Shown: positions 60,122 to 64,000 of the stretch, one piece after another
How the letters are laid out: each line of letters starts with the position of its first letter
Position numbering within the stretch: the stretch's first letter is position 1
Source: Escherichia coli
Lineage (GTDB): Bacteria > Pseudomonadota > Gammaproteobacteria > Enterobacterales > Enterobacteriaceae
Reading direction: 5' to 3' (one strand)
Assembly: GCF_051903065.1 (NCBI RefSeq)
Contig: NZ_CP178438.1
Length of the DNA stretch: 64,000 nucleotides
The notes under the pieces: generated by a model
What the model saw: the letters and a program-made list of their open reading frames with translations, nothing else
Told to the model about the DNA's origin: nothing
Database searches by the model: none
Made by a program: the position numbers and the translations under genes

Positions 60122-60152
60122 ATCGCTTCAATTGGCTCTAGTTAACTCTGGT

Positions 60153-61148
60153 TTATGGACGCATTATGGACATTCCTGACACCGGGTTAAGAGTCACTGC
60201 ATCTTGTAAGAAATCCGGTGCAAAGTGTGCGTAGGTCATAGTTTGCTGAATGTTAGAATGACCCAGGATGCGCTGCAATGTGATTATGTTACCTCCATTC
60301 ATTATAAAATGTGTGGCAAATGTATGCCTCAAAACATGCACTGCCTGTCCGTCAGGTAAATCGGGTTTTACTTCCCTGAGAGCGTTGCGCACTTTGTAGT
60401 AACTGGCATTAAAAAGCCTGCCTGAATTTTTGGTCTTGATCCGTTTAATCAGGTCCTGCGAAACGGGAATTGTCCTGCGCTTTCCGTTTTTAGTTTTCAT
60501 AAACGTAACCATCTGGTTAATGATGTGTTCAGCTTTTAAATTAGACACTTCACTCCAGCGTCCACCAGTAGAAAGGCAGACCAGAGTCGCATTTAATTCA
60601 TCACCATCGAGCATGGATAACAGCCGTGTAATCTCTTCACTGGACAAAAAAGCCATTTCTGTAACAGCTTCACGTAATCGCTTAACCTCACGGAACGGGT
60701 TGTGAGAATGGTATTCACCGGCATCAATTAACTTGGTGAACATCCCGCTCATTATTGCCAGATGCCGATTTACGCTGGCTGGTTTTAGACCATCGTTCAT
60801 CATTACAACGCGATAATCAGTTATCGTTTTCTTTGTTAGCTGGTCAGCTCTGGACACTCCCATTTCTGCAAATTTGGCGATTATTGTCGTCAAACGCCCC
60901 CGTTCAATATCTCCACGCTCATGTGATTTTCCGTGATATATCCACCATCTGCCTAACAACTCTGTAAGAGTTCGTCGGTCGGCTGGCTTCTCCAGCCACT
61001 CTTTGTTGTGGTAGTTAACCAGTACATGACGTTCGAATGCTTGAGCTTCACCTTTAGTTTTAAATTTCCGCCTGATACGTTTTCCATCTGCACCCTGCGG
61101 TCTGACGTCCACTTCATAACGACCATCATCGAGCTTTTTAATAGACAT
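60153..61148 (-). CDS. int: Tyrosine recombinase / phage integrase (P2 Int-like)
   Basis: 331 aa; N-terminal MSIKKLDDGRYEVDVRP and C-terminal catalytic region HVLRHTFATHF...LGHSNIQQTMTYAHFAP (R-H-R-Y). Confidence 0.88.
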   Translation of the reverse strand: MSIKKLDDGRYEVDVRPQGADGKRIRRKFKTKGEAQAFERHVLVNYHNKEWLEKPADRRTLTELLGRWWIYHGKSHERGDIERGRLTTIIAKFAEMGVSRADQLTKKTITDYRVVMMNDGLKPASVNRHLAIMSGMFTKLIDAGEYHSHNPFREVKRLREAVTEMAFLSSEEITRLLSMLDGDELNATLVCLSTGGRWSEVSNLKAEHIINQMVTFMKTKNGKRRTIPVSQDLIKRIKTKNSGRLFNASYYKVRNALREVKPDLPDGQAVHVLRHTFATHFIMNGGNIITLQRILGHSNIQQTMTYAHFAPDFLQDAVTLNPVSGMSIMRP

Positions 61149-61241
61149 AAAGCCCTCCGATGACGCTGTTTACTTCTACTACTTGAAAATTAATGCAATT
61201 TTCTTTCGTACATTTACTGCATACATATGCTGAATAAATCG

Positions 61242-61553
61242 TCAGCCAGTCTTTTGGTCTGAGTGGTGCAAGGTTGTTGAGTCTTGCCCAATGTGCGCGA
61301 GCGCCGGGGCTATTTGTCCGCCAGCGGGATCAGTTTCATCAAACATGAACCAGTCACGGTACTTGCGAAATCTTTCAGGCTTGAAAAATTTCATGCCTGC
61401 GTCAAAAGACATCTTTACTTTTCCCTGCTCATATCCAGCATAGGTGTTGTAGTTAATTCCAGTTAATTCAGCAACTTGCTTCCTTGTCATTCTTTCTGAC
61501 TCCCGAATAAGTGCGAGTTTCTCTGCTTGAGATGTGATTTGTGTATTTGACAT
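61242..61553 (-). CDS. Phage repressor, P2 C-like (HTH)
   Basis: About 104 aa from MSNTQITSQ; HTH segment RKQVAELTGINYNTYAGYEQG; C-terminus GQIAPALAHIGQ...SDQKTG resembles P2 C; divergent from the downstream operon. Confidence 0.72.
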   Translation of the reverse strand: MSNTQITSQAEKLALIRESERMTRKQVAELTGINYNTYAGYEQGKVKMSFDAGMKFFKPERFRKYRDWFMFDETDPAGGQIAPALAHIGQDSTTLHHSDQKTG

Positions 61554-61657
61554 GAATTGTCGTATCTCGTAATTTATGTTGTATGCGACACGCCAGAACA
61601 ACTCAGAGCGGCTTCAAATAGCTCTGGTTGAATGGCACCAAAGTTGAGGATATCAAA

Positions 61658-62014
61658 ATGAGTATTGGATCAGAAATGAATAACGATGTTGGAGAAAAAG
61701 TATCTGATCTCACAAAAAGTAAAAAATGTGACATCAAACTTGCAGCCGCACCGTCGGATTTGCTCTCGAAAGAGGGATTTGCTCTTTACATCGGTAAGAC
61801 GCCTCGTGCTGTTGCTGAAATGGCGAAAGCAGGCAAGTTACCAGCCTTTTATATGACGGACCCATTAAAGCCGGGCGGTCATGCTGAGTTATGGATTAAT
61901 CGCCGTGAGTGGGACAAGTACGCAGCCCAACTAGTTGATGAAGCTCCGACAGAATGGCATGACTGGAAAAATCGCATTAGTTACAGCAAATCAAGACATG
62001 GCCGTGCGGCTTAA
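61658..62014 (+). CDS. Cox-like excisionase/transcriptional regulator (start uncertain; ORF track begins 61628)
   Basis: Segment FALYIGKTPRAVAEMAKAGKLPAFYMTDP resembles P2 Cox; first gene of the rightward operon facing the repressor. Confidence 0.55.
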   Translation: MSIGSEMNNDVGEKVSDLTKSKKCDIKLAAAPSDLLSKEGFALYIGKTPRAVAEMAKAGKLPAFYMTDPLKPGGHAELWINRREWDKYAAQLVDEAPTEWHDWKNRISYSKSRHGRAA

Positions 62015-62024
62015 GGTGGAAAGG

Positions 62025-62195
62025 ATGAACGAGCCTCGTTGTATTGCTCAGTTATTGCGTAACGAAAGCCCCAGGGCGATTGACTTCACCATTACCCACG
62101 GTAAGGGGCGTAAGGGAATCATTATCCGCACCAAAAAACAGAGTCCGTTAAAAAAGGCTCTGACCTTTCTGAAAAGCCGGAGGGTATGGAAATGA
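62025..62195 (+). CDS. Small basic hypothetical phage protein (56 aa)
   Basis: ATG with aaggtggaaagg RBS immediately after the cox-like stop; the ORF track gives a longer, out-of-context version from 61935. Confidence 0.3.
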   Translation: MNEPRCIAQLLRNESPRAIDFTITHGKGRKGIIIRTKKQSPLKKALTFLKSRRVWK

Positions 62196-62692
62196 CAGTG
62201 ATGACGCTCAATCTCGTTGAAAAACAACCAGCAACTATGCGCCGGATAATTGGTAAGCATCTTGCCGTCCCTCGCTGGCAGGAGACATGTGATTATTATA
62301 ATCAGATGATGGAGCGCGAACGGCTAACGGTTTGCTTCCATGCACAGTTAAAACAGCGTCATGCAACGATGCGTTTTGAAGAAATGAACGACGTCGAACG
62401 TGAACGGCTGGTTTGTGCAATTGATGAATTGCGTGGGGCATTCTCAAAACGCCGTCAGGTCGGTGCAAGTGAGTATGCATATATTAGCTTTTTAACTGTC
62501 AGTCAGCGCCGTACTTTATTTATGCACGCACGACTGACAGAAAATGAATTTAATCAGCCATACTGGCGAATTAATGAAGAGTCATGTTACTGGCGTGATG
62601 CTTTATTCCGTGCATTACGTGAATTATTCAGTCTGTTTGAATATGCACCGACAATTCTGACGTCGGTAAAACCAGAGCAATATCTACATTAA
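62186..62692 (+). CDS. Phage early protein, possibly gpB-like replication protein (168 aa)
   Basis: Size and position match P2 gene B; no motif recognised with certainty. Confidence 0.45.
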   Translation: MEMTVMTLNLVEKQPATMRRIIGKHLAVPRWQETCDYYNQMMERERLTVCFHAQLKQRHATMRFEEMNDVERERLVCAIDELRGAFSKRRQVGASEYAYISFLTVSQRRTLFMHARLTENEFNQPYWRINEESCYWRDALFRALRELFSLFEYAPTILTSVKPEQYLH

Positions 62693-62755
62693 GTAATTAA
62701 CCAAAGTTTTTAACGCACTTAATCGTGCGGGGCTTCTTTTTGCCTGGAGAAAGTC

Positions 62756-62968
62756 ATGCATACAGTTTCTGAAAATCAGTGCGGTAAATACGCATTAATG
62801 CTGCAACAGGCCAGAACCGAAGCACAGGCCGATGCAGCAACGCGCTTTTCGTCTCATCTTGATGCCATGATTCGCCACATCACAAAGGCGGAGTTATCCC
62901 GCGTGGAGATAGTCGAGTTGCTCAGTCAGGAGTCTGCCAAATTCCATAATCTAGGACTCAATAAATAA
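62756..62968 (+). CDS. Hypothetical phage early protein (70 aa)
   Basis: ORF in the early operon between gpB-like gene and zinc-finger gene. Confidence 0.4.
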
Positions 62969-62976
62969 CAGGGAAG

Positions 62977-63228
62977 TTGGAGATGACAAATACAAAATGG
63001 TTCAGGAAACGCTTAACAGATTATCAACTTTCATTACTTAAAAAATTAGATGACAAGACTCCACTACATCCTTCAAGCGATGTCTTCCGCTCCTGTCCTA
63101 GTCGTGTGGAAAAAGCATTTATAGCAATGGGGAAATGGGGGCTTGTGACCAAATCAAGAGAAGGTTTCTGTATTACCGATAATGGCCGGGAAATGATTGA
63201 TTCTGCGGAGAGGGCATATAGCGAATGA
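62977..63228 (+). CDS. Hypothetical phage early protein (83 aa)
   Basis: ORF in the early operon; tightly packed. Confidence 0.4.
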   Translation: MEMTNTKWFRKRLTDYQLSLLKKLDDKTPLHPSSDVFRSCPSRVEKAFIAMGKWGLVTKSREGFCITDNGREMIDSAERAYSE

Positions 63229-63515
63229 AAAATATATTGCTTAATAACTGGCTGAAGATTTCAGTCATGAAAAATGGTGATTTGTCGCTAGCTGATATTA
63301 AACGCGATAAAAACACTGGGGATATGGTGGAATCAACTATAGCCATTTATGCGGATAAATTAAATCTCCTGTCTGATGTGGTCAATTTACTTGTTAAACG
63401 CGCTGTATTTCATAAGCAAATTTCATCCGTGGATGAACTGACAAAATTAACGACAGAAATCGCCAGCTATTGCGCTGATGAATTTAAGAAGCTGAACGAC
63501 AAAAGGAGCGGGTAA
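63225..63515 (+). CDS. Hypothetical phage early protein (96 aa)
   Basis: Start overlaps the upstream stop (translational coupling). Confidence 0.4.
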   Translation: MKNILLNNWLKISVMKNGDLSLADIKRDKNTGDMVESTIAIYADKLNLLSDVVNLLVKRAVFHKQISSVDELTKLTTEIASYCADEFKKLNDKRSG

Positions 63516-63739
63516 TGCCGGACAACGTAGATTTTATTCAGGAACAACAGGCTGAATTACTGGAGCGCCAGATTAACGCGGCAAGGGTAAAACATTGTGG
63601 TGCTTCTGCGCTGGTTTGCGAAGAGTGTGATGCGCCAATACCTGCTGCCCGTCGTGCGGCTTATCCGTCAGCCACGCGTTGTGTTTCCTGTCAGTCAGTC
63701 TTTGAAGCAAAAAACAAACATTACCGGAGAACGGCATGA
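63515..63739 (+). CDS. TraR/DksA-type C4 zinc-finger protein (74 aa)
   Basis: CEECDAPIP...RCVSCQ four-Cys motif; start overlaps the upstream stop. Confidence 0.6.
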   Translation: MPDNVDFIQEQQAELLERQINAARVKHCGASALVCEECDAPIPAARRAAYPSATRCVSCQSVFEAKNKHYRRTA

Positions 63740-63999
63740 GTATTCGTATTGAAATTGGCGAACGTTATGTCGTTACCAGTGACAGCTTTCAGTTTATTCT
63801 CCACGAGAAAAAGAGAGCGGAAAGCGGTAAAAACGCCGGTCAGGAGTGGCTGGCGGTGGTTGGTTATTACCCGAAATTAAGCCAGCTCGTTTCCGGCCTG
63901 ATGCATCACGATATTCTGACCGGAAGCGCAAAGTCTTTTGCTGATTTAAACGCGCAGGTTGAGCAACTCAGCAGGCGTTGTTCTGAGGCTTTTGGCTCA
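63736..63999 (+). CDS. Hypothetical phage protein, N-terminal part (runs off window end)
   Basis: ATG overlapping the previous stop (ATGA); open frame to the window edge (MSIRIEIGERYVVTSDSFQF...). Confidence 0.4.
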   Translation, partial: MSIRIEIGERYVVTSDSFQFILHEKKRAESGKNAGQEWLAVVGYYPKLSQLVSGLMHHDILTGSAKSFADLNAQVEQLSRRCSEAFGS

Positions 64000-64000
64000 T

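Follow-up and report, generated by a model that had tools for sequence, protein, structure and literature searches.

The left end of a common P2-like prophage type at the pflA start in an Escherichia coli chromosome

The closest described systems are phage P2 itself (NC_001895), in which the genes follow the order int, C, cox, orf78, B, orf80 to orf83 and A, and a set of phages related to it. Among the latter, PhiD145 and PhiD160 (AM158280, AM159077, AJ298559) are viable phages with a P2-type int-C-cox module (Karlsson et al. 2006; Mandali et al. 2010, as tabulated in PMC3448106), whose integration coordinate is MG1655 950293 in the old numbering (PMC3448106, Table 1). Phage pro147 (NC_028896) was obtained following mitomycin C and is plaque-forming (PMC5285337). 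A group of larger Cox proteins, group 2, was already described as well (PMC3448106; the group of Nilsson et al. 2011).

The window analysed here is a stretch of 64,000 nucleotides from E. coli, of which positions 60050-64000 very probably correspond to attL and the early (left) arm of the prophage of a temperate P2-like myovirus (Peduovirus) in the pflA/pflB interval of the chromosome. An initial annotation had recognised a P2-like left arm here, which was borne out since every gene that it listed was found where it had been placed; its reading of the order as P2-type, its individual gene assignments and the odd length of Cox were all upheld. Likewise, annotation with phage-specific profiles (PHROG), which had been proposed as a check, assigned P2-type genes. 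The start of the element at 60122 was wrong, however, the true start being the att core at 60050-60062 within pflA. The visible gene order was int, C, cox, orf78, B, orf80, an extra 81-aa ORF, orf81, orf82 and a partial orf83. This order is shared with P2 (gene A being placed here from relatives), except that P2 is without the 81-aa ORF found between orf80 and orf81. The prophage part displayed a G+C content of 44.2%, versus 50.7% in the remaining window. Altogether, the window shows the left end of a prophage whose P2-like type is common in E. coli and was described before; it is ordinary except for a new, phage-supplied pflA start. For prophage annotation the gain is small: the P2-like type, the att site, the larger Cox and the habit of carrying variable cargo are already in the literature.

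The attL core ACCAATAACTGAC (60050-60062) was delimited by alignments and comprised the last base of pflA codon 1 and codons 2 to 5. It was identical across attB (K-12), attP (phage vB_YpM_115), attL and attR. AATG at 60044-60047 was likewise common to both sides, whereas 60048-60049 differed, with CG on the host side and TC on the phage side. Gene int (60153-61148, minus strand) codes for a P2-type tyrosine integrase of 331 aa (phrog_1 integrase, E 1.6e-80), which shares 53% identity with P2 Int along the entire protein. Its 3' end displayed the pair of arm repeats characteristic of P2-like phages: two copies of TTATGGAC, 11 bp apart, overlap the last int codons and form the P' arm-type Int sites (60153-60171). 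The geometry is that of P2, where two GTGGACAC repeats, also 11 bp apart, lie at the 3' end of its own int, and the published arm consensus of P2-type Int is tgTGGaCa (PMC3448106). On the ogr side, the P arm and IHF region of P2 were nearly identical in relatives of the element.

With a shift of +777, which we take to convert the old MG1655 numbering to that of the newer genome version, the PhiD145/PhiD160 coordinate 950293 fell within the 13-bp core at the pflA start. The integration site is thus that of PhiD145 and PhiD160, a match made by coordinate and not by sequence comparison. P2 differs in both respects, its chromosomal site being listed at MG1655 2165238 and its att core being dissimilar. 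The element is not P2 itself but a probably heteroimmune relative of the PhiD145/pro147 kind with another integration site.

Gene C (61242-61553, minus strand) codes for an immunity repressor of the P2 C type (P2 C structures 2XCJ/2L49, E 4.7e-24). The list of open reading frames began it at a TTG codon, giving 119 aa; the gene adopted here codes for 103 aa. At 48% identity to P2 C, the repressor would be expected to be heteroimmune, and it may also belong to a different immunity group from those of PhiD145 and PhiD160. The early promoter Pe and its candidate operators (61547-61584, plus strand) were located by setting the sequence against the P2 annotation. Pe was composed of a -35 box TTGACA (61547-61552), a 17-nt spacer and a -10 box TAATTT (61570-61575). 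In P2, the TTGACA box of Pe overlaps the C start codon; the same overlap and an identical Pe geometry were observed here. Direct repeats TGTCGTAT (61558-61565) and TGTTGTAT (61577-61584), which match at 7/8 positions, lie on either side of the Pe -10, an arrangement also seen for O1 and O2 of P2. From this single 7-of-8 repeat pair, they are considered candidate C operators. The C promoter Pc and Cox binding sites were also sought in the sequence and none was located.

The layout of int and repressor leftward and an excisionase-regulator rightward would also fit a prophage of the 186 type (Eganvirus), in which the switch is CI/Apl/CII and SOS induction proceeds via Tum. Yet the repressor was a 103-aa P2 C homologue and not a ~190-aa CI, no cII-sized gene followed cox (orf78 and B come directly), and the arm repeats were of P2 rather than 186 type. 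The match to P2 C and the gene identities with P2 refuted this affiliation, which retains hardly any probability.

Gene cox (61658-62014, plus strand) codes for a group 2, or larger, Cox. The initial annotation gave 118-128 aa for this ORF; the 118-aa version stood and the 128-aa one did not, the start being ATG 61658, which is preceded at a distance of 8 nt by the Shine-Dalgarno sequence GAGG, in agreement with the PHROG profile start and the RefSeq annotation. P2 Cox was the best match by sequence and by fold (structure 4LHF, E 1.9e-6; fold E 1.3e-4), with 35% identity. The remark that the protein exceeds P2 Cox was correct (118 versus 91 aa), the length of P2 Cox having been verified. Residues ~26-107 form a conserved, P2-Cox-like winged-helix core. 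Residues 2-22 constitute a variable tail that was modelled at low confidence, which suggests that this N-terminal part may be disordered. The extra length is due to this variable N-terminal tail, typical of group 2; no study of the role of the tail was found in the literature. All homologues among the matches listed carry PF10743 (Phage_Cox) and range from 115 to 140 aa. Group 2 as defined previously (Nilsson et al. 2011, PF10743) likewise combines a winged-helix core with a length exceeding P2/WPhi-type Cox, and no difference was found here; this Cox is typical of a described subgroup, and its length is no anomaly. Group 2 is widespread in Enterobacterales, including a prophage of Pectobacterium atrosepticum SCRI1043 (PhiD145 site).

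Downstream of cox, on the plus strand, the early operon was closer to P2. An orf78 homologue (62025-62195, 56 aa) was 100% identical to P2 Orf78 and was followed by B (62192-62692, 166 aa, 97% identical to P2 gpB), a gene annotated in P2 (NC_001895) as needed for lagging-strand synthesis. After B, a terminator-like hairpin with a T-rich tail was seen in the sequence (62714-62739, plus strand), at the position matching a putative terminator annotated in P2. Then came homologues of orf80 (DUF2732; 62756-62968, 70 aa, 91% identical to P2 Orf80), orf81 (DUF5405; 63225-63515, 96 aa, 80%) and orf82, a TraR/DksA C4 zinc-finger gene (63515-63739, 74 aa, 100%; TIGR02419 at 78 bits for a cutoff of 59.7), and finally an orf83 homologue (DUF5405; 63736-64000) cut by the window end, whose 88 visible residues were 98% identical to P2 Orf83. 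The extra 81-aa ORF (phrog_11056; 62983-63228), absent from P2, occurred in 53 of the 5426 complete E. coli genomes, and its protein homologues were found in Escherichia only. To judge from sequence, the prophage is a mosaic of near-P2 replication and early genes with a different int/C/cox allele set: identities to P2 of 53% (Int), 48% (C) and 35% (Cox) versus 80-100% for orf78 to orf83 point to a swapped integration and immunity module.

The same genes bear on another possibility already raised in the initial annotation, namely that int, C and cox belong to a P4-like satellite or another non-P2 integrative element borrowing P2-like regulators. No point in favour of it was found. Behind cox, orf78, B and orf80 to orf83 followed in P2 order with 80-100% protein identity (91-100% for orf78, B, orf80, orf82 and orf83), gene A comes next in relatives, followed by the full late set in E. 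coli M15 and APEC O78, and the same module occurs in virion-derived genomes, including that of plaque-forming phage pro147. These P2 protein identities and the downstream genes of relatives refuted the satellite origin, leaving it with next to no likelihood.

Relatives of the P2-like element are common. The same junction was present in 404 of the 5426 complete E. coli genomes (~7%), and at least 80% of window positions 59300-64000 (pflA and the left arm) in 385 genomes. The closest relative was E. coli M15, with a left arm 99.5% identical, a prophage of ~29 kb and an uninterrupted late region. APEC O78 carries a prophage of ~32 kb at the same junction, with two pseudogenes, in head-completion and baseplate genes. 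In both strains, the full P2 late set from Q through D plus ogr occupies the interval up to pflB. Among phages, pro147 displayed 97.5% DNA identity over 90% of the region and an identical Cox, but is without the 81-aa ORF. Cox was also identical in phage S164 and in the Peduovirus record OU784746. Yersinia phage vB_YpM_115 (93.5% DNA identity, Cox 84%) displayed an intact attP, in which both the core and the leader ORF discussed below recur; unlike the element here, it carries two additional small ORFs between cox and orf78.

The int/C/cox allele set integrates at the 13-bp core on the first pflA codons. By homology with P2, the element could work as follows. In the lysogen, C would repress Pe, whose -35 overlaps the C start codon, and transcription of C and int would run leftward. 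Upon a flip of the switch, Cox would repress the C promoter and, together with Int at attL and attR, provide the directionality of excision, after which B and A would drive replication.

The consequence for the host gene is the distinctive aspect of this insertion. The 5' end of pflA (60062-60121, minus strand) was phage-derived: AAG (60062-60064) takes the place of the K-12 start ATG, and a 19-codon in-frame leader (60065-60121) begins at a phage ATG, giving a PflA of 265 aa versus 246 aa in K-12. The gene remains an open frame because the crossover lies inside pflA and the phage P' arm brings an ATG and 19 codons. RefSeq annotates a 798-nt pflA in APEC O78, so the 265-aa PflA was already annotated; by its reading frame, it is in fact a host-phage fusion. 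pflA presumably now depends on transcription that enters from the phage, and no terminator-like site was found between int and pflA. Two Salmonella enterica assemblies were examined and both displayed the succession pflB, sopD2, an int remnant of ~300 bp, a leader in the same frame and pflA. PflA is the radical-SAM activase required for pyruvate formate-lyase.

A joint reading of these data is possible but somewhat doubtful: prophages would take over the 5' end of pflA, yielding a PflA with a phage leader and a transcript started in the prophage, and the Salmonella junction would be a domesticated version. Integration would then remove the native start and shift the pflB-pflA intergenic region, with the pflA promoter, ~30 kb away, and pflA would be transcribed by read-through from C-int or from a promoter within the 3' end of int. 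If true, the sopD2 islet would be dated to a decayed prophage of the pflA-site P2-like type. In lysogens, pflA, a gene of anaerobic metabolism, may thereby be under prophage transcriptional control.

Such a junction can evidently persist as a fossil in the two Salmonella assemblies, and it may be asked whether the element here is itself a defective or truncated remnant, with an intact left arm and a late region decayed or deleted. The window stops before the late genes begin, two genes of the APEC O78 copy are pseudogenes, and fewer genomes carry the whole left arm (just 385) than the junction (404). Yet the ten visible genes were all intact, with 97-100% identity to their counterparts in plaque-forming phages, and M15, at 99.5% identity, has retained its late region without interruption. 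Moreover, the window ends one base short of gene A (replication endonuclease), which is expected from base 64001 as judged from relatives, and this exact coincidence fits the origin of a record rather than a deletion. A remnant is thus unlikely, and the stop of the window is probably the start of the source record.

The general claim that P2-like prophages often carry variable defence cargo was sound, a hotspot between gpA and gpQ being known (PMC9122126), which lies beyond the window. In P2, the cargo genes old and tin also lie beyond the segment covered here, and they were not seen in M15 or APEC O78. Among the ten visible proteins, PADLOC gave no relevant match to defence genes, only a weak and irrelevant one on Int. 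The next 30 kb are probably out of reach of a window extension, as this seems to be the end of the source record, and the first part of the same circular record is the probable location of the cargo hotspots. The base preceding gene A is a break point in at least six related RefSeq assemblies. Should the source record indeed begin with a prophage gene, the prophage would be split across the assembly ends, which is relevant to users of that assembly.

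The left end of the prophage (attL and early left arm, 60050-64000) is ordinary and real; the element belongs to a group of P2-like prophages that is known, common and characterised by experiment. The gene set and the P2-type interpretation proposed in the initial annotation were correct, and changes were limited to boundaries and start codons. ORF map and sequence placed host genes ycaC, ycaD, ycaM and pflA (59324..60121, minus strand) at the flank of the prophage block, which starts directly after pflA and has a G+C content of 44.2%, versus 50.7% in the remainder of the window. 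The minus-strand genes are int (60153..61148; phrog_1, E 1.6e-80) and C (61242..61553), coding for a 103-aa HTH protein that matched the solved P2 C repressor (2L49/2XCJ) over its full length (E 4.7e-24). Repressors of the P2 C type classically escape SOS cleavage. On the plus strand are found the Cox-like gene (61658..62014, 118 aa), a 56-aa ORF (62025..62195), B (62192..62692), a terminator-like hairpin (62714-62729) and, after it, five small genes, the last of which is cut by the window end. One of these five, a TraR/DksA zinc-finger gene (63515..63739, plus strand), provided the sole NCBIfam match above its cutoff (TIGR02419, 78 bits for a cutoff of 59.7), and Rfam yielded no match at E <= 0.1 in 55000-64000. 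TTG starts considered for C (119 aa) and Cox (128 aa) were dropped; in both cases the ATG start agrees with profiles, P2 and RefSeq.

BLASTP against annotated P2 gave identities of 100% for Orf78 and Orf82, 98% for Orf83, 97% for B, 91% for Orf80 and 80% for Orf81, and of 53%, 48% and 35% for Int, C and Cox, respectively. At the DNA level, the match to P2 began only at the orf78/B region (query 1904-3879). The pattern is the known mosaic of P2-like coliphages, in which replication genes are near-identical and the integration/immunity module is swapped. A modest side lead offered by this element is a host-phage fusion at pflA.

Two TTATGGAC repeats, spaced by 11 bp, overlap the end of int; the pair mirrors the P' arm of P2 and fits the published P2-type arm consensus tgTGGaCa (PMC3448106). 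When K-12, the two junctions of APEC O78 (a strain with a prophage at the same site) and attP of the virion-derived genome of Yersinia phage vB_YpM_115 were aligned with the junction in the window, a common core of 13 bp emerged, ACCAATAACTGAC (60050-60062); a shared AATG precedes it. The old K-12 numbering is offset by 777 bp from the current one, which converts 950293 into 951070. The latter falls within the core at the pflA start (K-12 pflA, 950340..951080), a placement based on a coordinate. Since MG1655 coordinate 950293 is the one listed for viable phages PhiD145 and PhiD160 (PMC3448106, Table 1), the site has already been described.

The core covers pflA codons 2-5 and the adjoining base turns the K-12 start ATG into AAG (60062-60064). 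An in-frame ATG supplied by the phage occurs 19 codons upstream of this AAG (60119-60121), and PflA is 265 aa long here versus 246 aa in K-12 (phage leader 60062-60121, minus strand). An identical leader is carried by Klebsiella PflA. The native pflB-pflA intergenic region was moved to attR and transcription of pflA would therefore be required from the prophage side. No terminator-like site was found between int and pflA, and the consensus scan of 59900-64000 revealed upstream of the leader only a weak 9-of-12 promoter site, which is not conserved in the Salmonella loci described below and is not proposed as the pflA promoter. No paper on the fusion was found in searches for pflA with P2-like prophage, attB or sopD2, the older primary literature lying outside this search. 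On the other side of the gene, ycaN and ycaK, which occupy the ycaM-pflA interval in K-12 and APEC O78, were absent at 59115-59323. O157:H7 and other strains displayed this compact ycaM-pflA arrangement in one continuous alignment, and the absence of both genes is thus a common polymorphism.

Two Salmonella enterica assemblies, GCA_010400525.1 (locus L007, 4395-6060) and GCA_025579025.1 (locus L009, 4361-6040), have sopD2 next to pflB, then about 300 bp with homology to the int 3' end, and then the leader and pflA. The int remnant was 70-77% identical at the DNA level (tblastn E 2e-8 in L009), and the diverged leader had the same length and frame as in the window. This arrangement resembles a fossil attL left by a prophage of the PhiD145 type, where sopD2 would occupy the former prophage slot. 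The E. coli-type promoter segment was absent in both assemblies. The apparent fossil suggests that the phage-derived 5' end is enough for pflA expression.

Cox had initially been noted as longer than its P2 counterpart, which was borne out (118 aa here, 91 aa in P2). Such a length is ordinary because, of the two Cox groups distinguished by Nilsson et al. 2011 (PMC3448106), group 2 is described as larger. Likewise, relatives from E. coli, Enterobacter, Citrobacter, Serratia, Yersinia, Rahnella, Pectobacterium and Dickeya were mostly 115-140 aa long, and PF10743 was present in all database relatives listed. Their N-terminal ~25 residues were variable in both sequence and length, and residues 32-106 were highly conserved. 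A GAGG motif lies 8 nt ahead of the ATG at 61658. As the conserved core starts at about residue 26 and no in-frame start codon occurs between Met7 and Leu35, translation must include a tail of 20 residues or more. The AlphaFold model (mean pLDDT 61, residues 2-22 below 50) displayed a beta-alpha-alpha-beta-beta-alpha core, with P2 Cox (4LHF) as top PDB match.

The early promoter Pe is organised as in P2: a perfect -35 TTGACA (61547-61552) overlaps the C start codon with the same placement in both, followed by a 17-nt spacer and a -10 TAATTT. Direct repeats TGTCGTAT and TGTTGTAT lie on either side of this -10, at the positions of operators O1 and O2 in P2, and by this analogy are candidate operators. 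The pair was seen only on overlaying the sequence onto the P2 annotation; the C-cox spacer contained no exact repeats of at least 6 nt. Neither Pc nor Cox boxes were found by the consensus promoter scan of 59900-64000, the repeat search of the C-cox spacer or the AGTTAA count. The scan returned three sites, versus 6.7 in shuffled sequence, and missed Pe. AGTTAA was rejected as Cox box, its 29 occurrences in the window showing no excess over the 25.4 expected by chance. A third copy of the octamer TGTTGTAT was observed at 60092-60099, in the attL P' region between core and int; overall, TGTYGTAT was no more frequent in the window than by chance.

Of 5426 complete E. coli genomes, 404 carried the attL junction, and 385 of these contained at least 80% of window 59300-64000 (pflA and left arm). 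In APEC O78, the prophage measures about 32 kb and terminates some 300 bp away from pflB. It carries genes for portal, terminase, capsid, lysis and tail as well as D and ogr, and includes two pseudogenes. That of E. coli M15 (99.5% identical to the window) is about 29 kb long and uninterrupted. Phage pro147 is 97.5% identical at the DNA level and its Cox is the same; a plaque former, it was obtained following mitomycin C treatment (PMC5285337).

Regarding the defence cargo suspected beyond the window, the known hotspot of these phages, the gpA-gpQ interval (PMC9122126), lies outside it. PADLOC detected nothing relevant among the visible prophage genes or the uncharacterised cargo genes of APEC O78. 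The latter occupy three variable slots (locus L001): after gene A (8083-10589), between the virion-morphogenesis gene and baseplate gene V (19177-19962), and between tail-fibre-assembly and tail-sheath genes (24964-26658). In M15, the gpA-gpQ hotspot is nearly empty and the first slot holds almost nothing. Cargo thus varies between prophages that share this left arm, and only the source genome can show what the present prophage carries.

Compared with P2, the left arm has an additional 81-aa ORF (phrog_11056; 62983-63228, plus strand) inserted between orf80 and orf81. Only 53 of the 5426 complete E. coli genomes contained it, and its protein homologues were found in Escherichia only. Pfam gave non-significant winged-helix hints only, PDB and PADLOC had no significant match, and a single-sequence model (pLDDT 66) matched no fold; the product could be a small protein of the winged-helix type. 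The early operon also varies at the cox-orf78 junction, a small spot where vB_YpM_115 carries two extra small ORFs (locus L005, 3390-3755).

Mapping from APEC O78 placed the start of gene A at base 64001, one base beyond the window end. No fewer than six RefSeq E. coli chromosomes stop exactly at the last base of the window (e.g. M15, W13-16, 19KM1831, EC6563 and EcPF20), and the M15 record (NZ_CP185789.1) opens with gene A at position 1 (1-2277). Most probably, the source record was rotated to begin at gene A, a 'replication' gene, in which case the remaining prophage lies at the record's other end. The chromosomes that stop at the last window base appear to have been rotated to the 'replication' gene of a prophage, which is split over the record ends.
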